From assembly GCA_001724265.1 (NCBI GenBank), contig MEDY01000055.1, positions 1-64,000 of the forward strand: DNA of 64,000 bases. The letters run 5' to 3'. The first letter of the stretch is position 1. Each line of letters opens with the position of its first letter. The translations under genes were made by a program, and so were the position numbers. This document shows positions 8,503 to 64,000 of the stretch, one piece after another. The notes under the pieces were generated by a model. That model was given only the letters and a program-made list of their open reading frames with translations, did not search any database and had not been told where the DNA came from. This stretch comes from Rhizaria sp. SCN 62-66 (lineage: Eukaryota).

Positions 8503-10873
8503 TCAATCAGCCCCGGCGTCGGCGTCCGCGAGCGCCTGTGCGTTGGCAACGATGGCCTCGGCGAACTCGCTCGCCACGGCGTCCATGTCTGCGTCGCTGG
8601 CGGTCAACAAAGCGGTCACAGACTCGACGTCAACTGCAGTGGCACCAGCGGCACCACCAGCCACACCACCGAAACTATTGCTGCGACCATAAATACTGTC
8701 CATATTGTCATTATTCACGCCGTCGTCGCCGTTAGCGGCGCTGCTGAGCTGTTCGTTTTCGCTCTCTGCAATGGCGGCGGCGGCGGCGGCGAGGTCCTCA
8801 GGCGACAGCGAGGCCAGCAGAGCAACCACGTCCGTCTCTGTCTCCGTCTCAGACCCAGAGACAGACTGTGAGCCTGAGGTCGAGTCGACGTGCAAGTGGA
8901 GGAATTCAGCGTCTGCGTCTGCGTCTGCGTCAGAGTCGAGGAGCAGCGACATGAGGTCGATATTATCGCCGAACACGTCACTGTCATCGCCCCCACCATC
9001 GCCATTGTACACAGTCTCTGACGTCACCGTGTACGTCTCCACGGTGTTGCCGTCGGAGTTGCGATCGGTGCTCACAGTCTCTGTGCGGCTCTGTGAGTAA
9101 CCGACACCACTCTCAGTGCCGCGCACCTGCTGCTGTTGCTCACTCTCTTGCTGACTCTTTTCGCGGTTACTCACCATCGCGCCAAATCCAGCGCCCAACA
9201 GCTCAAACATGGCTTCTTCGCTCATATCTTCCAAATCATCGCCGAATACAGCAAACTCATCGTCGCTTTCAGACTCAGCCGTCGTGTCGGTGGCTTGACC
9301 CTTGGCCTTTTTGGGTCCCATAGAGGCAAACAAAGCGCGCGCTAATGCGTCAGCCTCTTCGTCGCTCATCTCATCACTCTCACCGTCAGAGACAGTGTTA
9401 CTTTCAATGTCACTGTCATCAACACTCGCATTGGCCATGTTGCTACGGTTCACACTCGTGGAAGCGTTGCCGTCATTGCCGGCGCTGTTCATTTTCGTGT
9501 CGTTCATCTACATCGGAACACCGCCGTCCACCCCATATCCCTCACTCTCCTCATACGCTATCCCGTCAGCGTTGCCATCGCCATTGGTTTTATCACTGAA
9601 GTTGTCACCGTCACCCGCACCGGCAGCGTTCCCGCGGCCCGTGAGCGCCTCCGGCCCGCCCATGGCGAGCACGTCGCGCCACAGCTCCTCCAGCGCGTCC
9701 CCGCCCTCCCCGCGGGCCGCCTTGACGTCTGCGGCGAAGCCGGCGCCGGCGCGGCGGGTGGCGATCGCGCCAGAGCCGTCGAGGTCCTGCGTGACCGAGG
9801 CGGACAGCGACGGGGACGAAGCGGGTGAGGAGAGGTCGTCGAGCAGCAGCGAGGAGTAAAGGCCGAGCACGACGGCCAGGCGGTCGAAGGCGGGCAGGGT
9901 GCCGTCTGCGAGTGGGGCGAGGTAAGGCAACGTTAGTTTCAGAGGGTAAACATAAACATAGTTGACGTGGGTCAGTGAAGAGAGAGTCAAGAAAAACTGA
10001 GAAAACGATTTAAAAAGTCAATATTAACATAATAGCTAAAACCCCGGATAAATTCACCTCATCAAATTGGTTTGTAAAGGTATAGCAAAGCTATATGACG
10101 ATTAAGTGTGTTATGTACGGTATGGCGTTGATGCGTACCGTCCTCTGGCGTGATGTAGATGTCCTTGTCTGAAAGCCCAATAAAGTGGTCAAACAGCGGC
10201 GCGGGCAGAAGGTGCTCGACGCGGATGCTGCTGCACGAGGCTAGGATGACGCAGTGAAAGCGTAAGAACGGGGACAGCGCCTACAAACGTGCAAAATAGA
10301 AAAAGACACGCATTGGTTCACATAATATAGACACATACGGGGTCAGCACAGAGGTATAACAAAGAAGGAGCATAAAAAAATTAGTATATATGAGATTCAC
10401 ATTGTTTCGTTACGTTTGTGACGTACCGCGACGGCGGAGCGTGCGGGCTGGACCGCGGTGTCGTTGAGCCAGGGAAAGGGCTCGGGCCAGCCCCAAACAA
10501 AAGGCTCCTTGACGCCGTGGCGGTACAGCGGGTCCGCGAACGGCGGCGTGACCATGTACGCGAACGAGTCCTGCGGGTTGCCAGTCTCCGAGGGCGTGAT
10601 GGTCTCGTTGTCGTTGGTGGTGTGGGCGAGCACGATCACCAGCGTGTCAGTCGGCAGATTCAGCAAGTCGCTCTCGGTGGGGCCGTAGAGGACGTGGGGC
10701 GCTTCGAAGTCGGGGTAAAACTTAAGAGCCTTGGTGATGGGAGTGATGTCCAGATCAAGGTCGCCCTCCTCGCCGAGGACGGCGATCACGGGCCGAAACG
10801 GGTCGCCCAAGGAAGCGGGCAGCAACGCGAGGAGCACCGCTGCACACAACAGCGCGTACAAGGATACGCGCAT
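8503..10873 (-). CDS. Secreted protein of unknown function with acidic D/E/S-rich C-terminal half; exons 10873-10427, 10280-10139, 9905-8503; one in-frame TAG (9508-9510)
   Basis: Signal peptide 'MRVSLYALLCAAVLLALLPASLG'; phase-consistent introns. The coding-like acidic frame continues 334 codons past the TAG to a TGA. Confidence 0.6.
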
Positions 10874-23000: not shown

Positions 23001-23424
23001 CGAGGTCGGCGAGCCCGTCAACGACGCTGCCGGAGCCAAGGTTGGCGAGCAGCTGCGCGAGGTGGGGCGCGTGCGTCTGGATCATGGCCGCGTTGTTGGC
23101 GATCATGGCGGGCACGAGCTGCAGGGACTGGAGCCAGCGGGTGACACCGACCTGCGAGACAAGGTAGCCGATGGGGCGCGGCAGCGGCGACAGCTGCTCC
23201 TTGACGAAGTCACGCATCTTGAGCGCCGCACGACGGCGGCAGGCGCGCTTGGCGAAGCCCAGCGACGCGGGGGTCTGGAGAGCAGCCTCAATCCGGGAGG
23301 ACATCGCAGCGTTGGCATCCATGGTCGTGGACGCCAACGCAGCACCACCTGCGGCCAGAGCTCCGCAGGTGATGAACTGCACAAGGAACCCCACGACGAC
23401 AGCGAGTGTCGTAAGGGACCTCAT
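17020..23424 (-). CDS. Giant (~2,130 aa) intronless secreted protein: Cys-bounded helical repeats, LamG/concanavalin-like domain, EGF-like domain, CCxxC motifs
   Basis: Signal peptide 'MRSLTTLAVVVGFLVQFITCGALA'; LamG-like 'YTYQFWLKP...LPVNECTFVTVTHRDGNLQLFYND'; EGF 'CPNQCSARGKC...CICDPGWTGTGC'. Ends in TAA. Confidence 0.8.
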   Translation of the reverse strand: MRSLTTLAVVVGFLVQFITCGALAAGGAALASTTMDANAAMSSRIEAALQTPASLGFAKRACRRRAALKMRDFVKEQLSPLPRPIGYLVSQVGVTRWLQSLQLVPAMIANNAAMIQTHAPHLAQLLANLGSGSVVDGLADLVKKVGPVTVGPAPSAEALLAFLELGGDNAKLAVESCVVSYRLTTTPLQREACNAYDTTGEAGLKLLAIKLFTNTVRASPIGAFAVQYGGLHGLAARDAAFTGRLSSIVASSRLGALMARVGGFSRILADLQQGAHGLESISWALFGPKLLEKASHCAGGDGGQYVPPRMWTALGKLARDTALTQTFPASKHYTYQFWLKPGADFARLGGNLLRHGASSTVAAPAISACADARGVPGLAITVDGRNGTKGGIACSNALPVNECTFVTVTHRDGNLQLFYNDALVQETLVRDAVPVAGPVYFSDPWAAAADAEVMPVSVLARAVTRAEIAASIGATQHACPSTAFPAPLRARFSAVREAELSALSEVASSVRSTLDASVAADSASNSAASSAAEAELSAAQKDICLMRFRSLSIRKLATALAKSPIAAEFNTHGSTVRTFLAAGAAGKYDPAALDAKLANTHIGAALARVGGLKAVVEAFKAPAGNADTWAKVQALVMQMGGGKVELALDRCGQRSGAVLSDAAALDKQGCEVVTRWGRASLPSYAVKLFEQALAASRIGHLYTHYGSLLGLATALRSNKDLEGKAALLFAGSEAGQLLAPHGGLSAAFTAVLEGPGPLHALLWTAFSPKLAPVADRCAAALGSPAEQRRAVCRQRVVRRATYEFLGTIPQTPLAPLLGEFSVLDTASTAAVTANVSTASGTLTALAGVPWNRVFALDERVAGSPLATMLAPMGGVPALAAAARTSLAALQNFVWTMNKLALLPAVEACERRSERESTYVEACRRRVNDVYTGRFSAEVAKSAIAPFASKFGGFAALARHDPALLTRLAKLTASQPIAERFRYLGGLNNVFASVAQDPNALEAYLITDMYGATAQAALGHCEDHAATAAVASTASFMVSLKEKLTAPAFKRILDRALLAARNPLASSPLAQELVRLGGLQGLMVAASEGRDEDVAAFVAERLGTPLASARINGFVSGVGGATGLRALTQASHDMMSKTLAVLECEILSSTWLKGYLDAVGGCLPMMEIAGRPNAPDALDELAQKRVQRLWIETGLLPLTDGTFQAAVLTGTHFEPLLRQVIVGAFSAQHGDSAHAAHFSEMFGKILGKIETPRSFLESGASASSKAGAKGKARYDPNDPDPLKKPVDDDYYPTTLTVEAIGNKDVLEHVLRLKPGPEFKPGDIMAMDIAGGVPIVDPVAAYDDSPDVMAIVAGMNKTNSTVQAPANETVPAKASMTSIASVPNKVINDVPARCPNQCSARGKCVQNTGKSLLSPSGTAYIHPYECICDPGWTGTGCEIYIDQYVRWLLSKGRYGLPKCCPTCKSQSNPLPEARWVPAASANAFPVDPKCAHPEWISDRQRRAECIRSALATRQRVVPSPDIRAANIAGDDTPTNKDIIDLSFVELSTAVTARTSEPKSFSATLFENYAARTNADLKSVEAAFDVQFAEAVRPHAEARAAEEHSRLALLESGSGPTPRAGSAAAKFPVKTAAQLQAEHDSRYTSAFNKAYSLVESKESDQPGVSVIGEQGSSKQELKVATEVIVQDTSSLFTPTPLDEIHVPECCIPCDHNPQKDPEPKFVPTPEREKSIVERLSDNPPLPHTKDPYEIGIATKLSTGREDGQKFKRRGAVERANSWAARVANPMYNRRSNSPLPSEMSIKRLDDQDNDDEQCCTICPFKHVRGIFDKSGSTAVSSANSPDGADGATNVTPASFLELDAQFLSRSEDNLYSFIEESLTLVLRDDALPSMSAAEIDALARKHKPTATASLESLLDGALDTPAFPSLAATAEDVPVSASLLRAAKVARAIQRDFPESVSLLETSATTTATATAGAKAKVQGEPFPDDPKALPIEKRAEMIVQRQMIEKYINSTKPNCVNGTEVKKVDPPKGKGFNARLARMDIWLRSEKQNSTISAQAALSDWLTKLERKRTQTMPPTPAWRGVDLSTNVNHVNVPFVPRPDKKQAPCCDMCPSVFVLRQFPHNPWEEGPGPAFEILN

Positions 23425-24156
23425 GGTTGCACCTGTCGTTAGCAAGCACAGGGACGGGCAAGCAGGGGCAGAAAGAAGCAGGAAGAGGGGGCGATGGGGA
23501 AAGGGGGCGAGGGGAGGAAAGAACCAAAGGAGACAATGCAAAGAGCCGACGGGTAAGAGTGGGGAAGATAGGGAGTGGGGGGTAGGTAGAGATATACATC
23601 ATAATTCAGTGCAATCCCTGACTGACCGCGCTGAGGGTCACGGGGGATGGGGTGACTCATCGAAAGGGGACCTCGAAGGAGTTCTCAGAAGCAAGGTCGA
23701 CAGCCCTCCCTCGAGGCGAAACCAGCACTGCCAGGCCGAGAGAGCGCCCACCACAGACATATGATGTTTAAAGAGCAATACAATTCCCTCCCGAAATTGC
23801 TAAAAGGCTATATATGCTTTCCTGGGCAGCACACAACCAGGTTTGATGTTCCCCACATGGCTCGCCCGAAATTAAGCCGCGGTGGGGGTTCAGCTGCTCA
23901 CGGTCACCTGGCTGGCTGGTCAACTTTCGCGTTCGAAACACGTTTGTGGTGGAGACGAATGTCCGCTTCTTATCATCTCTTATATACGCCCATTTCTCAT
24001 TTCATGCTAGTGTTGTTAAGATATATCATTGTGCGAAATTGCAGAAATTTAGTATATTATTTTAGTGCTCTATCTTACGATCAATGTGCTCACTTTTCAC
24101 TCATTTTGTGAAACTGATGCTGATCTTAACTTCGATTGGATCTCTTAGGTACACCG

Positions 24157-30746: not shown

Positions 30747-31313
30747 GGTGGTTCAGTTCAGTGGTCGCTGCTTCTCGTCACTCCTGCGGACAGAAGCCGC
30801 ACGCACAAGGCGGCAAGCGCGTCGGCGCGCGGGGCGGGGAAAGAGCGGGGCGCGCTGTGGCAGCGCTGGCAGGCGGGGGCAGTGGCCTGGTGGCGCGGGG
30901 TGAGGTGGGAGGGAAGGGGCTAAGACTGTGGGGCAGTGGAGTGAGGTGAGGGATCAAACAAGTGGATATGGTGAGTGTCTGCCGCCATGAGCATAAATCA
31001 AAATTAAGATCATACACAAAACACTCGCAAATAATATATATTACGCGGATGCCGCAACTGACAGATGTTTCGCTTCGCACGAGCTCGTGATAAAGAACGC
31101 GAGACGTCGACGGCGGAAGCTTGAGGTCGAGGTCGAAGCCAAACCGAACGCGTGTCAATTTGACCCTGAAAGTCACTATGTCTTCCGACAATAGAGAGTT
31201 TACCGACATAACCAATTTTTCAACGCAGGTTTGACTTCATTAATAAAACTGCATCGATGCAGCAGGATATATCTGATGCGCAACCTCTCTTGTAAGTCAA
31301 GCACCTCCTCGAT

Positions 31314-36677
<5,364 letters not shown>

Positions 36678-37763
36678 GCTAAATGGCCCAGTTCTTGCAA
36701 GGCTTTTGCTGTGCGACCAGTTAGAAATACTCGATTCTCTTCATATCTGAATCTCTGGTAACAAATAATAATGTGACAAACGTGACGTTGTATGTGCGTT
36801 GATTTAGTTTTGTATTTTTGTTCAGTTCTATATTCTACACCCTTCCATGTGAACCTATGAGTAATGGCTCCTTCTGTTCTGCTTATTTTTTTTTCTTTCG
36901 ACTGCAACCAGTGTTCTGATTTGTTAACCTGCGCGTGGGCTTGCTGTGTCTGCGCTTGCTTGCTTGTGACCAGTGATGACAGTGACTCTTATTACCCTGT
37001 CACACTCTCGTTGCATCAGGAGTCGCCAGCCTGAGTGAACTTGCGTGCGATGATTTTGATTTCGTTTTTGAAAAGTAAGCAATGCCTTCCATATTTCTCC
37101 CTATAACTTTATATATTTTAACCCTGTTGTTCGCCCGCCGTATCTTTGACGCAGGCGCGCGTGCATCGTCAATCAATACATCAAATGCTTCATTTGTTTA
37201 ACATAGCATTGCGAAGACAGGATTCTATGCAGATGTAAAAGTTAAGAGATATTGTTTTGAAAATTGGTCTGTATTTTTTTGTTCTATCTTGTCACTACCA
37301 CACACCGCACTCGCACAATGATCACAACAACACTTGCAACTCCCACAAAAAAAACGATGGGCGTCGCACGTAAATATGCGCAACTCGCACAGAGAATGCT
37401 TTCATACCCACACACTGACGACAGCGGGTGTTTAAGACACACTGTCGTCGGGACACGCGTGCGTGCGCCGTGTGTGAGAAGTACACAGCGACGCGCGCGC
37501 GCGTTGGTGCGTGCGGGCAGACACCGCAGTGAGGCACCGCAAAGCGAGGGAGCTAGAGACTCACACGCTGAGTGGCGCCAAGAGCGGCGGCGTCGGCTCC
37601 CCGTAGGGAGGAGAAAGCGGGGACGAGTGGCGCAGGATGCGTTTACGCGCAGCAGCTCATGGTGATGACGTTATGATGAGACGATAGCAGATGTGGTTGT
37701 TGAAAGTGAGGTGTATGGCAGAGACTAGAGGGTAAACGGACTTTGTCTGGAGACAATGCACGC

Positions 37764-38321
37764 TTACGCCTTGGACTTCTGGCCACCGACCTCGACGTGG
37801 AGGGAGCGCTTGAGGGAGAACTGAGCCATGCAGCCGCAGACGGTGCACTTGAGCTTGAGGACGACCTTCTTGGTGGTCTTCACGTTCTTGCGGAAGACGG
37901 GCTTGGTCTGAGAAGAGCAAGTAAAGAACAAGGATGGAATTATGCAATGAGACATCGGTTGGTCATTCGCGCAGATGTGTGGGCAGCGCAGAGCGACACA
38001 ATAGAGATGCAATGTGTTTTGACGAGTTGCGAGTGGGTGGGAACAGAAACGTACCCTGAGCGAGGAGGGAGGCCTTGCCAGCCTTCTTCTGCCAGGTGAT
38101 GCCCTGGAGAGTGTGCTTCTTGCAACGCTTGCAGTACGTCTTCTTCTGCTTGGGGAAGTTCACCTACGAAAGTCGAAAGAGAAGCCAGAGAGACCAAAGA
38201 GAGACCGAGGGTGAGCCATACGACATTGCACGGGTCATTGCACGCCAATTGGCGGAGAAACAGAGCTGGGAATGAAATGAATAGATATTATAGTGCGAAT
38301 ACAGTCACAACTACGTACCAT
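37764..38321 (-). CDS. RPL36A: 60S ribosomal protein eL42 (L36a/L44); exons 38321-38319 (ATG only), 38163-38055, 37907-37764; apparently missing ~44 nt
   Basis: '[19 protein letters not shown]...GKASLLAQG' and '[21 protein letters not shown]...VGGQK'. Exon 2 ends in phase 1 but exon 3 starts in phase 0 (see findings). Ends in TAA. Confidence 0.85.
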
Positions 38322-39227
38322 TTTGAATGTTGACCAATCAGTGGGATCAAACAGACTCTCTCGAGGTGAGCTCCAGAAGAGTGCGCCACCGACCGACCGC
38401 AAAGTTGGCCAAAATCACTTTCTTTTTTTGAGAACCTCACGCTTGAGGCTCTCATGGTATTTGTACACTTCTTTCACTCAGCACAGGGAGACTAGCTCTT
38501 ATCAGAATATATCAAAGCAGTTATTGTTGTCGGCATGTTAAAATGTTTGTTTCTTGTATTTTATGTTGTTCTTAATCATTTTATGCCTCGAACCCCTCAA
38601 CAACCCCGCCTACCACAGATCACTGGTTCAAGTGCTTACTGGCCTTTGCTCTTCTCCAGTCCTAGTGACACAAAAGCAAGATAAAAATGTCCTAAGACTG
38701 AAGTATTACACTCAAGCAAACTCTTAGAAACTCCCAACATACAATGAAAAACCAGATCATCACGTTCAATGTTGGTTCTAGACACATTGAAACGTGTGTC
38801 TAAGTGATTATGCTGCCGAAGCCTCCGCACTGAGTTTTCTTCTCAAGGCTACTCCTGCAGCCATTGCCGCTGTGCTGCGTGTTCACATAACGCAGCAGCC
38901 GCCGCACTGTGACCGGTCGTTGTCCCCCGGCCCAGTGCCCGGCTGCTGCTGACTGCCGCCGCCGCCGCCGCCGCCGCCGCCGCCCTGAGGCAGCGGCAGC
39001 GGCAGCGGCGGCGGCAGCTCGCGGACCCCTGCCCCCAGCTCGGTGCCGGGCGGCGGCCGCGCGCCCCCCGCCCCCGCGGCGCCGACACCGACGCCGCTGG
39101 GCAGGGAGCTGCTGCTGCCGCCGCCACCGCTGTTGCCGCCGCCAACACTGCTACCGCTCGACGTCGAGGACGACGACGAGTGCGGAGCAGTGCTTCCGGC
39201 GGCGACCGAGCTCGGGGGGGCCTCGAG

Positions 39228-40091
39228 TCAGTTGGTGAGCTGCGCGACTGCGGCGCCCACGTCGCCCTTAGCGGCCAGCAGCGCGCGCTTGGACTGCGCC
39301 TCCTCGAAGCCCATCTCCGTCAGCTGCGTAAGCGCGGCTGGGAAGGCGAACGGCGGCGCCACGGGGGCCGCAGCGGCCGACTTGGCGGCCTCGGGCTTGG
39401 CGTAGGTCGCGGTCCACTGGCGCGCCTCGGCCTCGAACTCGCGGACGGACCGGCGGTACATCTGCGCCACGACGCCGTCCTGCGGGTCGTCGGGGTTGGG
39501 CGAACACAGAAGCAGCGCGATCGACAGCAGCACCGTGCGGATCGTCTGCGCGGGGGACCACTGCGGGGGCGGAGATGCAGGGGAGCAAAGAAGGCGACAG
39601 ACGCGACAAACCAGCAGAGCGAAGGGAGAGAGGTTAGAGAAGACTTCAAGTTGGGGTTAAAATCGTGACATGCGAAAGCACGACCGAGATAAATATATGC
39701 AGAAGCACGATCATCAAGTTACAAAAGATGAGATTCACAGATGGACAGAGCAGCAACACAATCATTTCACTGCTTTTGCGATTGTTTCTAGTAGTGAGTC
39801 AATACGTACCTCATTCTTGAGGATGTCGAGGCAAATGACGCCAGTGACCGAGGACACGTTGGGGTGCCAGACCTTGGTGAGGAACTTGCAGATCGGCGGC
39901 GTGAACGGGTACCCTTCGGGGATGACGATGTCGATGTAGAACTTGCCGCCCTCGTAAGGGGAGCCCTCGGGGCCCTTAATCCAGCCGCGCCAGTGCAGAC
40001 AGGTCGACTCGTCCAGCGGCTCGGCGCCGATCTCGGAGTCCGCGGGGAGCTTCCGCAGCTCCTGCAGCTCGCGACCAAGGCGGAATGCCAT
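39228..40091 (-). CDS. Ubiquitin-conjugating enzyme E2 with C-terminal UBA (UBE2K/Ubc1/UBC27-like); exons 40091-39810, 39560-39228; possible upstream exon near 40333; possible read-through to 38883
   Basis: 'GPEGSPYEGGKF...YPFTPP...[26 protein letters not shown]', 'PNPDDPQD', UBA 'LTEMGFEEAQSKRAL'. Ends in TGA. Confidence 0.92.
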
Positions 40092-40560
40092 CTGCGGCGC
40101 GAGACGGGGAAGGGATGAGAGTACATAAGGGAGCATCGGGCAACGATAGGCGGTGAGCAGTGCAAGAGTGGCAGTTGTCGAGAATAGGGAGACGCGGGCC
40201 ACAGGAAAGCGCCGGCAAACAATACAGGCACAAAGCAGCACAGAAATGATTTAAACACGTTTAATAATACGAGCGCACGTAGCTGGACACGAGAAATCAC
40301 AACCGTCTGCGGTCGTTGCGGCGCTTCTGACATGCCGATTTGTTGGCGAGCTTCGGCCGTTGAAATTGCTGCACAATGGAGCCGAGAGCCGATTTGTGGC
40401 TGCTTCGAGAGCCTCCCATCGAATCTGACAAGCTGCACACACAGTAACATCGTCAGGCGGCTATATCATTTTAATTCAACATACTAGATGTAGTATCTGA
40501 TACGACACGCATACTGACACCCTATTATCTATTGTGTTGCGTCCGTGCAGTCGCCCCCAA

Positions 40561-42478
40561 ATGTCGCGCCGCGCTGTGGGCTCCCTCGCCCTCCGGGCGT
40601 GCCAGCAGCCCGCTGCCCTGGCCCACCTCGCCCGCATCGCCGCCAGCCAGGTCCCCGCCGCGCTTGGCCCCGCTCCCCTGCGCGCCGTCCACACCCCTGC
40701 GGCGCCGCACCGCGCCGCTGCCGCCGCCCTCGCAGCGCAGTCGTCGTCTCTCGCTCGCTTAAGCACGTGCTCTGCTGCGTTTGCGGCGACTAAGTCTGTC
40801 CCGCGCGCCTCCCTCTCCACCACCGCCGCTGCCACCGCGCCCCGCATCGTGCCCGCCGCTGCTGCCTCCACCTCTTCCCTCGCCCGCTCCGGCGCCGTCA
40901 ATACCATGCTGTCACATATCCTCTCCGTCCAGGCCGCCGCCGCCTCCACCTCCGCATCTGCTGCTTACAACACTCGCGCTAACGGCGCCTCCCGCCCCGC
41001 CGCCGCGTCCCAGCGCGCGCCCGCCGTCGAGTACCGCGCCGTGCTTACGGGCGCCTCGCTTTCCCCGCGCTTCCGCCGCGCCCTGCTCGACCACGTGGCC
41101 CGCGCCTTCTCGACCCGCGCCGCGTTCCTCGCGTCCCGCCGCTGCAATGCCAACAATGCCGACAACGCCAATAATGCTGGCAACAGCAAGCCTGCGGTCG
41201 CGGATGCTGCCGCCGCGCAGGCCGCTCTCGCCGCGCAGCCCTGGGGCTCCGCCTCCGCGCCCGCCTCAAACGCGAGCGCGGGCGCGGGCGCTGGCTCCTG
41301 GGCGACCTCCAGCACTGCTGCCGCCGCTAAGCCTGCCGCCAACGCCGCCAATGGCGCTGCTGCCAGTGCTGCTGCCCCTGGCAACGCGGCGCACGAGGCT
41401 GCATACGTCATCAACGATACCGGCATGCACACCATCGGCGGCGGTAACAACAACAACAACCCCGCTGCTGCTGCTGCTGCTGCTGCCGCCCGCGCCCATG
41501 CAGTCAGCGGCGGCGGCGGCGGCAACAACAACAACAACAACAGCAATACTGGCAAGGAAGGCGAGAGCACGTCTGAGCGCAACCTGCGCTACGGCTACTA
41601 CATGATGGCGCTGGCGATTGTGTCGCTGGGCGTCTCGTACCTCGCCGTGCCGCTCTACGCCGCCTTCTGCCAGATGACCGGGCTGGGCGGCACCACGCAG
41701 CGCGACGTCAAGGTCGAGGAGCGCAACCAGTACCAGCAGCGTACGGCGCACCTGGACCCCGACGCGCCGCCGCTGCGCGAGATCACCGTCCGCTTCGAGG
41801 CTATGGTCGCTCCCGCGCTCGACTGGGAGTTCCGCCCCTGCCAGGTACGCGTGCTCGCTTATCTCAAACGCATATTTGATAACATTCATGCATGTATTTC
41901 GTAAATATATGTTGGCTTTCATTTTAACACAATATTGTATCTCTCTATCCGAGTTTTGTGCACATGCGCTTATATCTTTGGCTTCAAATTTCTCGATTTG
42001 TTCTTCATGTTAGGAGGAGATCAAGCTGCGCATCGGCGATACGGCGCTGGCGTTCTACAAAGCCAAGAACAACATGACGCAGCCGTGGGTGGGCGTAGCG
42101 ACCTACAACGTGCTCCCGGCCTCGGCGGGGCTGTACTTCAACAAGATCCAGTGCTTCTGCTTCGACGAGCAGCGGCTGCGGTCGGGCGAGGAGATGGACA
42201 TGCCGCTCTTCTTCTTCCTGGACCCCGCGATGGCGGATGACTGGCGCATGGACGGCACGGACCTCATCACGCTCAGCTACACCTTCTTCCCCGTCGCGGC
42301 CGACGAAGTCGAGGCCATGGACCCCCGCGTCAACCGCGTCACACCCCTCAAGACCAACAACAGCACTGCCACGACGCTGCTGCCGACGACGCCGGGTGTG
42401 GTGCAGCTCAAGCCCGGGCAGAGTCCCGAGGACCTGCTCGTGTGCGAGATTCCGCCCAAGAAGACCGTGAGCAAGTGA
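40561..42478 (+). CDS. COX11: Cytochrome c oxidase copper chaperone COX11 with long N-terminal presequence/extension; exons 40561-41844, 42014-42478
   Basis: TM 'SYLAVPLYAAFCQMTGLGGT', 'WEFRPCQ', 'GVATYNV', 'YFNKIQCFCFDEQRL', 'ITLSYTFF'. Ends in TGA. Confidence 0.95.
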
Positions 42479-51556: not shown

Positions 51557-51751
51557 TATTCATTCATTCATTCATTCATTCATTCATTCATTCATTCATT
51601 CATTCATTCATTCATTCATTCATTCATTCATTCATTCATTCATTCATNNNNNNNNNNNNNNNNATTCATTCATTCATTCATTCATTCATTCATTCATTCA
51701 TTCATTCATTCATTCATTCATTCATTCATTCATTCATTCATTCATTCATTC
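51557..51751. repeat. (ATTC)n microsatellite spanning an assembly gap (Ns at 51648-51663)
   Basis: Perfect ATTC tandem array on both sides of the N run. Confidence 0.97.
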
Positions 51752-52514: not shown

Positions 52515-54337
52515 TTACTCAACGTGCTTCGTACTTCCAACTTCCTTGTTATCACAGCTGCTCATTGCACAGCTCTTATCGCCATTCATATCACACTTGC
52601 TATTGTTGTCGCTGTTCCCTGAGCAGTCATGATCGTTTCGCTTGCTCATTGCCGCACTGGTCACTTCCTCGACCTCGTCCCTGATCTGCTCGCGCGTCGC
52701 CGCATAGCCGAACTTGCCACCGCCGTAAAACGTCAGGTACGGCGGGAAGTTCGGCCTCGTCGGCGCAAACTGCGCGCTGGCCCAGTAGCCCGCGCGCACC
52801 CACGCGCACTGGACGTGGGCAAAGATGGTCAGGTGGCCGGGGGTCCCGAGCCCGGCCAGAGCGGCGAGCGCGCCCGCAGTCGCTGCGTCACCCTCAACCG
52901 CACTCTCTGCGCCAGCGCTCTCTGCGCCATTGCTCTCAGCAGCGGCGGCGGCGGTGGCGGGAACCGCGACCCCTGCTGCGTTTGCGCGCGGCGCGGGGAT
53001 GATGTGCGCCACGGTGCACACGAGGTGCGCCACGCAGTCCGCCACGGCGACGTCTCCGTGCGCGCGCGACGCCGCCACGGCCTCGCGTACCGACGCGGGC
53101 GCGTTGGACAGGGCCTGCGCGCGCCGGCGGGCGGCAGCGGCGGCCAGCGCAGCCGCCTTAGAGGCCTCGGCGACGGCGGCCTTGGCGGCGGCCGCGGCAA
53201 CCTTGCCAGCAGCAGCCTTGGCAGCCGCGACGGCAGCCTTGGCCTAGGCGTCTTCAGTCGAGGCGAGGGCGACTGAGGAATCAGTAGCAGTCGCTTCAAC
53301 GCTGTCACCAACGCTAGCAGTGTTGCCCGTGAACTGAGCGAGGCAAGGGCGCTTGGCGACGTGCTCAGGCGTGGCGTCGTCTTTGTCGCCACAGCGATGC
53401 GCCTGAGTCGTGACGCTGGCACTGGCACTGGTGCTTGCGCCAGCACTGGAGCCAGCAGTTCCAACAGTGGAGCTCTCTAAGGTAGAGGCAGCGGTGCCTT
53501 CACGGGTCTGCTTTTGCTTGCTATTCTGATGCTGTTTGTCGCTACCCTTGCTGTTGATGATGCTGTTGTTGTTGCTCGCCACAGCGGGCAGAGGCGCGTC
53601 TTCCCAACCCGGAACGCATGTCGCGATGCCCAGGCGGGCCAGCTTTGGCAGTGAAATGACATCGCCCTCGTTGTTCACAGTCTCCTCAGCCGAGGTGCTT
53701 GCATCAGAGCTACTTGCTGTTGCTTCAGTCGTCGCTGTCGCAGTGCGAGCGCTATTCGCAGGGGCGGGCTGGGGGCCGTATGTGTCGAAGCCGGAGCACT
53801 TGCCGATGCTCTTAACAGTCTCTTCCATGCCCATGACGGGGATGTTGAGCACTAAGCACGATGCAAATACAATACAAATCAACGATGAGGCAGAGACATC
53901 AGTAGGTTAGAGAAAGCACGTGCAATGTCGGAGTATGAAAGCGCAAGATGAGGCTTCGATTATAACGTACCGAAGCGGCGTGTTTTCTGCAGCAATGTTG
54001 CGGAGAATCGTGTCTCATTCATGGACATGATGAATGCACCGGCGACGTTTGTGGTAGGCGTGAGCCAGCTGATAGTCATCGCGTTGCACTTGCGCTGCGG
54101 GCCAGCAGTCAGGGGCTCGCTCGTCGTCAGCACGCACACGGGGTTCGTGTACAGCATGCGCGCGTAGTGCGACGGCGCAAGTAGCACCGGCTCGCCGTAC
54201 GGGTGCTTGTTAAGGACCAACGTGGGCAGGACCAAGATCTTCTTAGCAGAAGTTGTGACTATCTTGCTGTCCGCAGTGTGCTGAGTGGTCGCTGTGGGGT
54301 CCGCGGAGACGGGTGTAGTCTGTTCCTGTTGCGACAT
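52515..54337 (-). CDS. Flavin reductase-like FMN-binding split-barrel protein; exons 54337-53971, 53851-52515; one in-frame TAG (53244-53246)
   Basis: N-half 'RMLYTNPVCVLTT...NAMTISWLTP...FVLNIPV...IGKCSG'. C-half 'AVADCVAHLVCTV...GHLTIFAHV..AWVR..YW...PPYLTFYGGGKFG' is in the same frame after the TAG. Ends in TAA. Confidence 0.8.
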
Positions 54338-58122: not shown

Positions 58123-61100
58123 ATGCCTCCTGTGAGTGCTACCCCCAAGGTAGACGCCATGCTTGGGGGCATCACTGCTAATGGACTCCCCACCTACCCA
58201 GGACGTTTTCACGTCATTGAGAAGGTTGGATACGGTATGTCATACATTTTTACGGCCACTTGCGCTACCATCTTATCCACCACAGCTGTATACATATGCT
58301 CCATCTGACTGCGTGATCCTTAATCGCGATCTTCCCGCCTTGCCCTGTGTCGATATTGTTCACTACACAGGCTCATTCAGCGAAGTCTTCAAAGCCGTTC
58401 CGCTCGACAACGACGGAAACCCCGACTTTTCTCAGCCATTTGTCGCGCTCAAGCGCCTCGTCCCGCTGTCGACGCCACAGGACGTGCTCAACGAGGTCCG
58501 CCTGCTGCGCTGCCTCGGCGGCACGGACCACATCATCAAGCTGCTGGACGTCGATTTCTGCCCGGAGACGCGCCGCATCACGCTCGTGCTTGAGTACGCG
58601 CCGCATGAGAGCTTTAAGGTCTGTCGTTACATCCCAGTACTTCCATATACTCTCAGAACGCTCTTTTATGACCAAGATTCGATCTCACCCCAGCCTATTT
58701 ATACTTTTCTGTTGACAGGTCTTTTTCATGCGCATGCTCCTCACGGACATCATGCACTACATGCGCGCGCTACTAACCGCGCTTAAGCGTCTCCACAGCT
58801 TCCGCATTATCCACCGTGACCTCAAGCCGGCCAACTTCCTCCACCTGCCGGGCACTCAGCACTACCACCTCGTCGACCTCGGGCTCGCCTCGGTCCAGCA
58901 AGACGCGCTCCTGGACGCCCCCGACGGCGCGGACGACGCGAACCCGCTCTCCGCGCTCGCGTCCTTGGCGGCGGAGGCTAACAGCGGATACCAGCAACAG
59001 CGGCGTCTGGCTGGGCTCAGGAACCCGCTGCAACAGCAGCATTAGCATCAGCAGCAGATGCAGCGGCAACAGCAGCAGGGGCGTCGGCTGAGCACTGCGG
59101 ACGCGATTAGCGAATGGTTTTCATCCCACATGGGCCCGCTTGCGGCTGCCAACGGCCTACCCCTGCCGCCGTCAGCCGTGGACACACCTAATGACTCTGC
59201 TTTGAGCTATGCTTCTCAGGGCGGCAGCGCTAAGGCAAAGGGCAAGATGGCTGGTAAGACCACAGACACCACTGCTGGGAAGCATAGGTTGACGCCGGTG
59301 CCACCGCCCGCTACTGCGCCAGACCGCTGTGCCAGCGCCGCTGGTGCTGCTAATAGAGCGAAGCACGCGCTCACCGATCACGTCGACATCACCACGGACA
59401 TCGATGCCAGTAATGTGGTCGGTAAGAGTAAACAGAAGTCCGTGAACCCGTTCAAGATTAACCCCGCGTCTGCTAGCACAACGGACGCCGTGACGACGCC
59501 AGATACTGCAGTTGCTACACTTGCGCCTGCGAAGCCGGTCCGTGCGTCAGCTCTTGACATCCTCCTCCAAAACACACCTGCGCCGACACCAGCTCAGACA
59601 AAGCCGAGCTCGGCGGCAGCCGTGAAAACTGCGGTGAATCGTGGTGCTGCTGCGAAGTCGAACGACATCCCCGGGCACGCGTACGGCTCCGCGTCTGAGA
59701 ACATGCCGGCCAGCGGTGGTGATGCTCCGATGAATATAGCGCTGCATGTTTCGCATGACCACACTGGAAATGCGATCACTGGCAATGACGCCCCTAAGGC
59801 TGCCAGCGAGAACCCTTACGCGACCTCGTTCGTGTCTGCGCTGGCGCAGAGCGGGCGGTACTCTGCGCAGCGCGAGGCCGAACGCACGCGGCAGCTGCTG
59901 CGCAGGCAGCAGGAACGGGACGACCTGCGCCGACAGCAGCTGCTCGATCAGCAACAGCTTTAGCAAGAGGAACAGACAAGACTTGCAGAGATTGCCACGG
60001 CTGAAGCTGCATCTAGCGCCGCTGTCCTAACTATCGCGACTGCGATGACCGCCAATATGACTGCCTCTTTGACTGTATCGACAACATATGCTGCATTGTC
60101 TCCGGCAGAGACGCCCTTGCCTGCGAGTCCACAGGCCGACCGGGGCATGGCCGGAGGTGACGATGATGCGGACTACGACGCGGTCGAGACCAAAGACGCC
60201 GATGGTGGCTATGACGTGGGATATGATGACCACAACACGTACGACGCTGGGTGGGGCGACTGGGACTATGGGGAGAACAACTACAACAACGACGACAACG
60301 CCGACAACGCCGACGCCAACGATGCCGATGTCAATGACGCTGACGGCAACTCGTCCGCCCGGTCACAGAAAAGCCGTCGCATGCAAGATATCGACCACGA
60401 TATCGGGGCGGGCAACGACAGCAGCGACGACCACAGCGATGACGGCGACGACGGCAACGGCGGCGACCCGATCCTTCGCCGAGTCTATCATCGTTCTTCC
60501 GCCATCTCTGGTGCTCCTCGGAACGCGCTTGCTTCTTTTGCCTCACCGCTTGAGGGCCAAGTGGAGTTTCGATACGGCAACGTCGAGGTGCGGTCAGCGC
60601 ACACAGCGCAACGACCTCCGCGGCGGAGCGCCGGCGCCGGCGAGACGGTGGGTGGACTGCGCGCGTTTGTCAAGGCCCATACCAACGGTGCTGCGAGCGA
60701 GACTGACGCCGGCGACGGCTCTGACGCGGCCGACAGTGCCCACGTTGGCAGCGACCGTGGCAGCTACCGTGACCGTGGTCGCGACCGTGCGGGCGGTGAA
60801 TCTCGCCGCGATCGCCGCGACCGGGACCAGAACGTTGACCGTGAACGCCATGCGCGCGACCGTGACGGCGGTGGCGAGGACGGTTACACTGGCCGTAGGG
60901 ACAATGCAGCCGACAAGGCTACCCTGCAGCATAGCGTGACGACAACGCTGGACGCAGATTCTGTGCAACAACAAGGTCACACTGTTCATAGCGTCCATAG
61001 CAGCCAGTTCGTCGAAGACGATGACCGTGACAGGGACGCGGGCTCGGAGGCAGTCTACGATCCGTCACTTTTCCCTAAATCTTCTCAGACTGCCGCGCAA

Positions 61101-64000
61101 GTCAGCGCAAGCGTAAACTCAAACACTCGCACTTTGCCTCTCCACAACCTGAATGTGAGCAGCCCTGGTGCTGTGAGGGTGCAGAGCGCAGACGACGATT
61201 ACGACTACGACGACGACCGTGACGCAGTCAAAATATCCATCTGCAGTAGTGGAAACAGCAGCACGCGGAGCCTTGCTAACAATCTTCGCAGTTGTCAAGT
61301 CATTGCAAACAGCCTTCACGACGATGACGATGACAACGACGATGACCGCGACGCTGATCTAGATGCCTTGATTTCGAGCTTCGGCAGAGATGGTGAGAAA
61401 AAAGTCGCGGCTCAAGATGGTATGACACCGCCTGCAATGAGCCAGTCTCTTAGCGCCGGTCTGAGCCAGATCCGTTCTCTTAGTTTGAGTCAGGGTCACA
61501 CCTCTCTTAGTCAGCAGCACCTGTCTCAGCCGCGTCACGGCGGTGGTGCTGCATTTGTCGACACGCATCTGCCCGTGCACGCGCCCCCATTCTCGCAGTC
61601 GCCCGTCGTGTTCCCATCACTGGCGTCCCACACGAACTCCACGACCGTCACGCCCACGACACGATCGCGCCGTGTTCCGTCCGCCGCTGCGGCTGCGCCT
61701 GCCGCGGCGCAGGATCTGCGCAGCTCGCCGCGCCGTGCGAGCATGCGCGCCGACACGAACGTCGGCGTGCAGCGCGCTAATCTGCTGACCAGCGCGCATG
61801 TCATTCTTGGCGATAGCGGAAGCGAAAGCGACACGCCACACTTCGCAGCGTCGCCAGTTAGCCTCAGGTCACTGGGAAACAGCAACGCCGGCAGCAGTGG
61901 CGGCAGACGCACGGCGAGCCCAGCCACTCGCGCGAGCACGCGCAGGACTACCAACCTGAGTCCCAACAGACCGAGAGCGTCTGGCGGCACCCGAACGCGC
62001 GCCAAGGGTCCGTTGCCCCCGCCGCCGCCCCCGCTGCCGCCGCCGCAGCCGCCACAGCCGCACCCGAGCGCGTCCCCGCCCCTGCCCCACCCTTCGCACA
62101 ACCACAACTATCCCGCCGCGCCCGGCCTCCGCGCGGGCACTGGCGCTGGCAGCGGCGGCGCTGGCGGCGCTAGCGGCGGGGTTGGCAGCGGCGGCAACGA
62201 CGTGGCCCGCCGCGCGGCCGCGTCCGCCACCGCGGCGGGCGGCTCGCTGTCGCACCAGTCGCGGCGCTGGATGGCCGCGGTTACGGGCCGCACGTCGCTG
62301 GCCGAGATCGCGCCGGTGGCGCCCTTCAGCGCCCACAGCAACCGAGCAGTCGACGGCTACAGTGGCGGCGGAGGACAGGGGCTGCATAAGCGATCGCGTA
62401 TCGCCGCATCTGGAGGCGCACTGTCTGCGGCGACAACCTCAATGCCGGCCTCGCTATCAAACGTCGCAGCCGGCGCATCTCTGCACGGCCGGAACGTCAC
62501 CGCGCCCGCGACGCTGCCCACCCGCAGCAGCAGCAGCAGCACTGCGGTTGGCGGCCCTACTGTGAGCGCAAGCAACGCGGGCATGGGCGCTGGCAGCGCC
62601 GAGGCCGGCAGCAAGGCCGCCGCGCTGCGCCAGCGACTGGAGAGCCTCAGCGCCAACCGCAGCGTTACTGCGAACCACCACAACAACAACAGCAGCAACG
62701 CCAACAGCGCTGGCGGCGGGCCCGGGCACGTCCGCGGTGTTGGCAGCATCAGCAACGCTGGCAGCATGCCACCACCCGCGCATCCGCCTGCACATCACTT
62801 CTTCCGCGCCGCGACTGTATCTGCGACCACAGCGTATCTGTCCGCGGGCGCCGTTGCGGCCGGCCAGTCCTCGAACCGGGACTCGTCCTCCGCCTCAGAC
62901 TCCGGCGCCGCCGCCGGTGCCGCAGCCGCCGTCCCGCGCTCGGGTTCGTCGGCCTTCCATTCCGGCGCGGCCGGCGTTGTCGTCACTGGGACTGGCGTCG
63001 CCGCGCGCCCCGCGGCCCGCGTCCGGGCTGAGGTGGCCTTCGCGGCGGCCACGGCGGCGGCGGCGGGCGCGCGCGGCACGCACACGTACGCCGGCGCCGC
63101 GCTCGTGGCCATGGGCCGCGGCGACGTCGAAGTCCCCATTCACCACCACCCCAGGCAGCAGTACCAGCCCAGGCCGCCGGCGGGGGCGCCGCGGAAGTTC
63201 GTGCCTCCGCAGCAGCAGAACCAGGGCCAGCAGCAGCCGGCGGGCCGGGGCAGCCGCGGCAGGCCGCAGGTCGTGGCCGCAGTTGCGCGCGCCGGCACGC
63301 GGGGCTTCCGCGCGCCAGAGGTGCTGATGCGCGAGAGTGCGGTACGTGTGTATTATATTGTTGTGTGTATTCTTTAACTTAATCGACCCTGAACATCTGT
63401 TTCTCTGCATACTTCCCCATATTTCCTGCTAACTTCGCTGACATGATTTTCCGTGTTTTTTTTTTTTTTTTTTTTTTTAAGACGCAAACTGTTGGACTCG
63501 ACACCTGGAGTGCTGGAACAATCCTTCTCACACTGCTTTGCCGCAGGTACCCCCTGTCCGTGGCAAACGAAGACATTGTATCTCAGGCAGAGCTGATTCG
63601 GTTGATGGGGACACCAATCGACCAGGACCCTTCGCACTACATCCTCAGCGACCGCGCTGTGAGCACCGAGTCCGTTCCCGAGACTATGGACGGCGCGCGC
63701 GGCCTCTGCGCCCGTCTGAACCCTTCCGTGCGATGGCCCGAGCCCGTGCTTGCGCTACTGGACGGTCTGCTTGCCGTTGACCCGCGCGAGCGACTGTCGG
63801 CCGCTGCCGCGCTGGAACTGCCGTTCTTCGACCCCGCGCAGTTCGACGCTAAGGCGTGGGACGACGCAGCATTCCCGGGCTGTGTGTCGCTGACCGAGGG
63901 CGGGAAAGGCGCGCCGCTGCCCGGGGGACCGATGCCTCTGGGCAGCGCCGAGGATGGCTTCGTGGTGGCAGGCTGCGCGGAGTGGAGCGATGACGAGTGA
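58123..64000 (+). CDS. CDC7: Cell division cycle 7 kinase with giant kinase insert 2; exons 58123-58234, 58371-58618, 58719-63341, 63482-64000; two in-frame TAGs (59043, 59961)
   Basis: 'KVGYGSFSEVFKA', 'VALKRL', 'YMRALL.AL', 'IIHRDLKPANFL', 'LVDLGLA', CDC7 signature 'RAGTRGFRAPEVL', 'QTVGLDTWSAG'. Ends in TGA at 63998-64000. Confidence 0.9.

Follow-up and report, generated by a model that had tools for sequence, protein, structure and literature searches.

A candidate UGA read-through extension ending in a CaaX box in a UBE2K-type ubiquitin-conjugating enzyme of a wastewater protist

INTRODUCTION

Read-through of a UGA stop codon can give a housekeeping enzyme a second form in another compartment. 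Fungal Pgk1, Tpi1, Art1 and Rpe1 and mammalian LDHB and MDH1 acquire peroxisomal isoforms by read-through at UGA CU(A)(G) (PMC4207609, PMC4359377, PMC5133446). In both Ustilago and HeLa cells, UGA CU(A) was shown to drive read-through, which becomes stronger when A occupies +3 and G occupies +4 (PMC4207609). The RNA elements known to stimulate UGA read-through are stems that begin 6–9 nt past the stop and close a large loop; in Venezuelan equine encephalitis virus (VEEV), the stem has 11–12 bp and a 1-nt bulge in its 5' arm (PMC3159437). Here we analyze a 64,000-nt stretch of DNA, called the window below (positions 1 to 64,000, forward strand, of contig MEDY01000055.1, assembly GCA_001724265.1, Rhizaria sp. 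SCN 62-66), in which a minus-strand gene for a ubiquitin-conjugating enzyme (E2) with a C-terminal UBA domain ends at a TGA that is followed by 114 open codons and a second TGA. The initial annotation had proposed that programmed read-through of the first TGA yields a minor E2 isoform with a prenylated C-terminus.

The E2 locus resembles the peroxisomal read-through isoforms, as these sources describe them, in that a housekeeping enzyme, a UGA-CU context and an extension with a C-terminal sorting signal come together, from which a minor relocated isoform would result. It differs from them in that the signal is a CaaX box and not a type 1 peroxisomal targeting signal, in that the extension is long (114 codons) and of low complexity, and in that CUC G stands in the place of CUA G. 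In addition, a large RNA structure is predicted after the E2 stop, and it was by conservation that the peroxisomal cases were defined, whereas the E2 extension is a candidate. Like the read-through sites of alphaviruses, furoviruses and a coltivirus (PMC3159437), the E2 site has a UGA followed by C, a short spacer (7–9 nt there, 7 here) and, by prediction, a long stem closing a large structured loop. As in VEEV, the 5' arm of the predicted closing helix is interrupted by one unpaired base, here a G; the helix encloses ~160 nt. Unlike in viral read-through, the E2 is a cellular protist gene, its fold was computed from one sequence without covariation, and the predicted hairpins span the whole extension.

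Among the E2 systems of membranes, Ubc6/UBE2J are tail-anchored, and the prenylated ubiquitin-fold proteins UBL3/MUB are said to recruit E2s. The proposed isoform would share with them E2 activity at the membrane surface; it would differ in that they use either a transmembrane tail or an adaptor protein that is itself prenylated, whereas here the lipid would be carried by the E2 itself, and by its read-through isoform only. Prenylation has been predicted for UBL3 and, computationally in PRENbase, for an E2 of Arabidopsis and rice (PMC1847700). In plants the motif belongs to the ordinary frame of the gene and is reached without a long linker or an intervening stop codon. This computational plant prediction was all that our literature search retrieved on prenylated E2s. 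In our full-text search, none of the papers listed dealt, by title and abstract, with a CaaX end produced by read-through; the "readthrough" of PMC3405040 is transcriptional.

RESULTS

A UBE2K-type E2 ending at a genuine stop codon

Judged by its sequence, the minus-strand two-exon gene encodes an E2 of the UBE2K/Ubc1 type, with a UBC core and a C-terminal UBA domain. Exon 1 (39810..40091) starts with the ATG at 40091 and comprises 94 codons for the N-terminal two-thirds of the UBC core, including the HPN motif and the catalytic Cys (Pfam UQ_con, E 4e-27, profile positions 1–89 of 140), and its end is backed by a spliced cDNA contig. This contig, record 26 of X6, joins 39810 to 39560 (CT..AC on the plus strand) and thereby removes an AT-rich GT..AG intron of 249 nt (39561..39809). 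The coding part of exon 2 (39231..39560), with 110 codons and a GC content of.71/.54/.94 by codon position, provides the end of the UBC core (UQ_con, E 2.6e-09, profile positions 91–139 of 140), so that both exons together cover positions 1–139 of the profile, as well as the UBA domain (Pfam UBA, E 7.1e-08, residues 75–105; UBA_7, E 3.6e-08). The UBA domain is single and C-terminal, and the protein ends just after it with the residues AVAQLTN, as in the UBE2K/Ubc1 type. Solved UBE2K chains (200 aa) match both parts of the gene, up to residue 190–192.

The first stop codon, TGA at 39228..39230, is followed by CT (UGA-CU-C). It is identical in the polyA-RNA contig X5 (39180–39456), in another contig of X6 (39215–39420) and in the DNA contig X3 (39024–39473), which were assembled from three runs of three studies, two of them RNA runs and one an independent DNA run. 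The initial annotation had placed this TGA at the position where the family ends, and the homologues agree: among the best 150 of 1491 library matches, a list too short to show weak matches to the extension alone, 58 of the 65 homologues that reach the UBA domain end within -4 to +4 residues of the E2 end, and seven are longer. Apart from identical sequences, the protein libraries contain one close relative, the protein P0003 (70% identity over half of the E2), and its last seven residues are the same. The first TGA is thus a real, ancestral stop. Two of the possibilities that the initial annotation had named as fatal to its proposal, a sequencing error and a recent nonsense allele, are excluded by the agreement of the three runs and by the conserved family end.

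TGA is moreover a stop codon in this organism. The Rab-like GTPase of the window ends in GCSC-TGA, the long coding frames contain no internal TGA, and no other in-frame TGA occurs in ~13,600 sense codons. When stops were sought that have 50 coding-like codons both before and after them, the E2 TGA and two TAGs were the only ones returned, and a looser scan (K=30) added the TGA at 8503–8505, an ordinary gene end with AT-rich sequence after it. An Rfam scan of 37000–41000 at E<=1 detected no selenocysteine insertion sequence (SECIS); its only matches were two miRNA-like ones, at 24 and 22 bits against gathering scores of 110 and 84. Given the read support, the family end, the use of TGA elsewhere and the missing SECIS, we rejected a sequencing error, a nonsense allele, selenocysteine at the first TGA and a code in which UGA is sense. 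The organism seems to translate another stop codon, TAG (see below), which speaks for the view that the E2 TGA is likewise decoded and that the long protein is the normal product; the sequence past the second TGA is plainly non-coding, however, with a GC content at third codon positions (GC3) of 0.40, and together with the Rab end and the TGA-free frames this makes decoding of the TGA, or an error in it, extremely improbable.

Stop context and the predicted RNA structure downstream of the stop

The leaky stop context claimed in the initial annotation is present in its core: UGA is followed by CU, for which ~0.05 is expected from the local composition. The full motif UGA CUA G is absent, CUC G standing in its place, as the initial annotation had already shown. 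Among the putative terminal TGAs of the window, "terminal" being judged from a drop in GC content and the lack of a splice donor, that of the E2 is the sole one with C next; the eight others are followed by G in seven cases and by A in one, which suggests selection for strong termination contexts. Of these putative terminal stops, the E2 and Rab ends alone are fixed by their families.

The initial annotation had recommended folding the RNA after the stop, and a very stable structure is predicted from 7 nt past the TGA. It is an extended, branched stem-loop (39026..39220, minus strand) whose closing helix pairs 39220–39206 with 39043–39026 and encloses two long hairpins. For the 196 nt from this point, the minimum free energy (MFE) is -156.5 kcal/mol with z -9.43 and an MFE frequency of 0.32, and none of 200 shuffled copies was as stable. 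In a 381-nt fold the pair probabilities of the closing helix are 0.97–1.0, except for 39217 (0.50) and the unpaired bulge G at 39213 in the 5' arm; the helix disappears in one shortened context that cuts a downstream repeat hairpin. One of the enclosed elements, a 69-nt hairpin (39135..39203, -49.8 kcal/mol, z -6.2), recurs in a separate fold. Two more hairpins are predicted at 38893..39015 (sliding-window z -4.7 to -8.1; bounds approximate, from the dot-bracket notation), which pair (GCYGCC)n with (GGC)10 and a CAG-repeat arm with an arm containing Cys codons. All these structures were predicted from a single sequence.

The controls were GC-rich coding segments of the same window. For 134 nt taken from the stop the fold has z -3.84, and 35 control segments of this length have a mean z of 0.02 and a minimum of -2.66; for 196 nt, 24 control segments have a mean of 0.15 and a minimum of -2.53. 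The stability of the extension is approached by 0/24 and 0/35 of them. In sliding 100-nt windows z ranges from 0.15 to +1.5 in exon 2, falls to -6.6 at the stop and lies between -3 and -8 across most of the extension. In a scan of 2546 windows, seven of the top 15 GC-corrected outliers fall on the minus strand in 38801–39200, and none on the plus strand there. The complement is 25 kcal/mol less stable than the mRNA strand, with an ill-defined ensemble, which suggests that the feature belongs to the mRNA strand and acts at the level of RNA. The 7-nt spacer fits the 6–9 nt spacing of the known stimulatory stems.

Other folding-energy outliers in the window, with z of about -3.5, lie at 23301–23450 and 41401–41600, both on the minus strand. 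The latter runs antisense to a COX11-like gene, over its N-terminal, low-complexity region.

The in-frame extension and its CaaX end

As the initial annotation had stated, 114 codons after the first TGA are free of stops (39227–38886); they end in SQCGGCCVM and are followed by the second TGA (38883..38885), which has an A next to it; in the same frame another stop, a TAA, comes 24 codons later. The extension (38886..39227) is rich in Gly, Ser, Pro and Ala, contains no ATG before its last codon and matches no Pfam family. Its GC content is 0.79 and drops to ~0.4–0.45 directly past the second TGA, where an AT-rich 3' untranslated region (3'UTR; 38608..38882, GC.56/.72/.40 by codon position) is covered by a contig of X6 at 38608–38907. 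The initial annotation had remarked that other 3' regions mostly turn AT-richer or soon reach a stop. At the other putative terminal stops of the window, GC-rich sequence gives out ahead of the stop codon or at most 61 nt after it. The E2 is the only gene of the window whose GC-rich block goes far past its stop, by 345 nt, as far as the second TGA. The remaining GC-rich blocks of at least 150 nt in the 64 kb all have some frame with a GC3 of 0.66–0.97, and nearly all of those frames contain no stop, or none except at a gene end or as an in-frame TAG.

The codon statistics favor the E2 frame. By codon position, the GC content of the extension is.74/.76/.88 in this frame, and.70/.74/.88 when repeats are masked (77/114 codons kept). 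The relative codon adaptiveness of the extension is 0.62 in the E2 frame and 0.32–0.37 in the shifted frames; it is 0.74 and 0.82 for exons 1 and 2, 0.47–0.68 for other low-complexity coding stretches and 0.19 for the 3'UTR. The frame also stays open in the right phase through three repeat blocks. An antisense gene was considered and rejected: the plus-strand frame that shares the GC3 phase is broken by a stop at 38986–38988, has no Met and continues antisense to exon 2.

A CaaX box has Cys at position -4, an aliphatic residue at a2 and, where X is Met, is farnesylated; a Cys upstream of it is a possible palmitoylation site. The extension ends accordingly in Cys-Gly-Gly-Cys-Cys-Val-Met (38886..38906), in which CCVM, the motif recognized by the initial annotation, has Cys at -4 and an aliphatic a2, follows a Gly/Ser/Pro-rich stretch and is preceded by a further Cys at -7. 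Among 506 ends of stop-to-stop open reading frames (ORFs) in the GC-rich sequence, in six frames, Cys is found at -4 in 25, a loose CaaX in eight and a strict CaaX in two, the E2 extension being one of the two. A strict CaaX with another Cys in -10..-5 occurs once in the 506, at the end of the E2 extension itself.

Evidence for a possible untranslated structured element

A number of observations weigh against translation of the extension, and they argue for the main rival explanation, namely that the 345 nt are an untranslated, GC-rich structured element of the 3'UTR, whether regulatory, stabilizing or a young hairpin-forming triplet-repeat expansion, with the frame, its phase, the second stop and the CaaX box coincidental. 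The open frame alone is not beyond chance (P 0.29–0.45): no stop occurs in 29% of copies shuffled by mononucleotide and in 45% of those drawn from a first-order Markov model, and two of the six frames over the extension are likewise stop-free, the other four having one or two stops each. The description of the extension as coding-like in the initial annotation stands with respect to GC3, which is highest in the E2 frame, but its 3-periodicity is marginal: the AT counts by codon position are 30/27/14, least at the third position of the E2 frame, with a p of 0.047 that is weak beside equally GC-rich coding windows, 17/18 of which reach p<0.05 with a median of 2e-4. When it is ranked among 186 leave-one-out coding windows, its frame preference reaches the 14th percentile and its sense-over-antisense codon preference, with 6.5 nats, the 4th. 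The gain of 48–57 nats over shifted frames obtained with a codon model overstates the case, in that coding frames were compared and not GC-rich non-coding sequence. Tandem repeats at 38955–38984, 38989–39018 and 39111–39157 make up a third of the extension. The entire extension, and not just its start, is strongly structured, unlike all control coding windows, and the structure could therefore alone account for the GC-richness. In the fold, the Cys codons are the complement of the CAG-repeat hairpin arm, and selection for them as Cys codons is therefore not required. Finally, the case was picked for its motifs from a very large scan.

The relatives also supply points against a conserved extension. 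A scan of metagenome contigs returned four loci, among which L001 is the sole E2 with a UBA domain, L002–L004 being AT-rich E2s without one; L001 is distant (48% identity) and ends in TAA TAA without an extension. Scans of genome contigs and viral contigs returned no E2-UBA locus, and none of the seven long-tailed homologues (tails of 34–390 residues) has a CaaX end. Some plant E2-UBA proteins named UBC27 have Cys-containing tails right after the UBA domain (LCSSA in Ipomoea, LCCG in Vitis and Orobanche), and an unnamed ENA cluster of the homologue set ends in LCGGA; the UBC27 tails are a lead and not a test.

On the other side, an untranslated element needs several independent coincidences, starting with the open frame (~0.37). 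AT would have to be scarcest at the third codon position in the E2 frame (1 in 3, and p 0.047), a stop in frame would have to fall no more than three codons from where the structure ends, and the strict CaaX with its extra Cys (1/506) and the CT after the stop (~0.05) would both have arisen by chance. Moreover, no other GC-rich non-coding block was seen in the 64 kb, and a structure that begins 7 nt past a stop of the UGA-CU type is the very signal known for read-through. On balance, we consider an untranslated element unlikely, though a serious competitor to structure-stimulated read-through.

A different alternative accepts read-through and questions the anchor: the peptide would be a by-product, or would regulate the mRNA or the protein, for example as a degradation tail. 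The stop context and the RNA structure support read-through equally in this case, and the weak coding signal and the RNA pairing that can explain the Cys codons agree with it. Chance seldom yields a terminal CaaX accompanied by another Cys, however, and the frame is open across three different repeat blocks, so that we regard an extension with no anchoring role as distinctly improbable.

Transcript and splicing

RNA appears to extend past 38883, as the read-through proposal demands. The X6 contig that covers 38608–38907 comes from the same run as spliced contigs, and X6 cover, present on the E2 exons, is absent on the E2 intron and on the intergenic spacer at 38212–38553; the RNA therefore appears to reach at least 275 nt past the second stop.

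No RNA contig covers 38908–39214, which makes internal splicing possible, and a donor-like GTGGGC lies at 39260, 30 nt before the stop. These two observations favor the alternative that splicing removes the stop and joins the extension to the E2 with no read-through. The GC content, repeats or structure may explain the gap, within which 38940–39023 was left out of the mapping as a repeat, and the gap is evidence neither for nor against splicing or continuity. Against splicing stand two RNA contigs that are collinear through the stop, and none of the mapped RNA contigs has a joint that bypasses it. GTGGGC is also unlike GTACGT, the donor of the confirmed E2 intron and of one further likely donor in the window, and its use would remove the last helix of the UBA domain; no AT-rich, intron-like gap or pyrimidine tract is present, as GC-rich sequence continues from the stop. 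We therefore judge a splicing origin of the extension very unlikely.

A tiny in-frame intron around the stop (27 nt, GT..AG) was tried as a candidate and rejected, the RNA contigs being collinear there. A similar construction for the TAG at 59043 fails, since it has 41 nt, by eye, and is not a multiple of 3.

TAG codons and the setting of the gene

The window has a GC content of 0.63, with GC-rich exons (GC3 ~0.9) and AT-rich introns and spacers. Near-identical sequence is present in bioreactor, wastewater and activated-sludge runs from several studies. The best relatives of the Vps34 encoded in the window are an unnamed protein at 37% identity and, as the best named one, that of Thecamonas trahens at 39%; judged by the relatives of the E2 and of Vps34, the lineage is sparsely sampled.

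Four in-frame TAGs occur in long coding-like frames, at 59043–59045, 59961–59963 and 32385–32387 on the plus strand and at 53244–53246 on the minus strand, all in low-complexity contexts (QQQH_HQQQ, QQQL_QEEQ, AEAE_EDL and TEDA_AKAA). Two of them are internal to the frame of a Cdc7-like kinase (58716–63377), which has 1554 codons, no internal TAA or TGA and a TAA end, and over which the other five frames contain 19–64 stops; its HRD and DLG (DFG-position) motifs precede the TAGs, and GT.GFRAPE and the rest of the Pfam kinase profile follow them. One further TAG lies in a FAM135-like gene and one is that at 53244–53246. None of the putative gene ends in the window is a TAG; they are TGA or TAA, and Vps34 ends with TAA at its family-typical residue. 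Because of the in-frame TAGs in long genes and the lack of TAG gene ends, TAG is probably a sense codon in this organism, perhaps for Gln or Glu. This leaves the reading of the E2 TGA unchanged. Translation of TAG in a GC-rich wastewater eukaryote may add a new case to those in which UAG alone has changed its meaning. The window contains no tRNA genes.

In the Cdc7-like kinase (58154–64000, plus strand), an insert of ~1,450 residues separates the DLG from the GT.GFRAPE motif and so divides the catalytic domain, with positions 10–86, 99–148 and 176–263 of the Pfam Pkinase profile in three separate pieces. Very long low-complexity inserts are found in other genes as well, such as a (Gly-Ser) run of ~30 pairs at 31296–33398. 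A run of 16 Ns at 51648–51663 is the sole gap in the window. In the minus-strand gene for ribosomal protein L44e/L36a, the window differs between 37911 and 38052 from the RNA and DNA contigs of other runs, in which 37 other letters stand there; by eye these letters encode the conserved piece Arg-Arg-Tyr-Asp-Arg-Lys-Gln; this part of the window may be a mis-assembly or a strain difference.

DISCUSSION

The initial annotation attributed the E2 extension to programmed read-through. Every check that we ran is compatible with this proposal, and the predicted RNA fold adds support that the annotation did not have; the coding signal of the extension, which it had taken as evidence, proved weak. What recommends read-through is the joint fit, since it explains all of the following together: the conserved stop, the weak stop context, the properly spaced structure, the open frame in phase, the end of the GC-rich block at the second TGA and the CaaX box. 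We put the chance that structure-stimulated read-through of the UGA yields a minor prenylated, lipid-anchored E2 at about even.

The proposed mechanism would operate as follows. An ordinary E2 of the UBE2K/Ubc1 type would normally end at its genuine, ancestral UGA. This UGA stands in a weak UGA-CU context and, after a spacer of 7 nt, would be followed in the mRNA by an exceptionally stable extended stem-loop. At the UGA, some ribosomes would incorporate an amino acid and continue for 114 codons to the second UGA, which lies in a strong UGA-A context. This would give the same E2 a flexible linker of ~105 residues of Gly, Ser, Pro and Ala, ending in Cys-x-x-Cys-Cys-Val-Met. Following the general rules for CaaX proteins, this end would receive a farnesyl group and then be trimmed and methylated, while the Cys upstream of it might be palmitoylated. 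A minor pool of an E2 that builds polyubiquitin chains would thus be tethered to membranes. Read-through and its level, prenylation and the membrane function are all proposed here from the DNA and from modeled folds.

In the wider setting, we think it possible, with a probability somewhat short of even, that an uncultured protist lineage which also appears to read UAG as sense uses a virus-like signal to produce a farnesylated, probably palmitoylated isoform of a chain-building E2. If this is true, it would be the first case of stop codon read-through creating a lipid membrane anchor, and this E2 would be the first to be anchored in such a manner. The known read-through cases unmask peroxisomal signals; here, recoding would switch an enzyme from a soluble to a lipid-anchored form. 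A stimulator of the extended stem-loop type found in viruses would then be at work in a cellular gene, and read-through would offer the organism a direct route by which E2 activity is placed on membranes.

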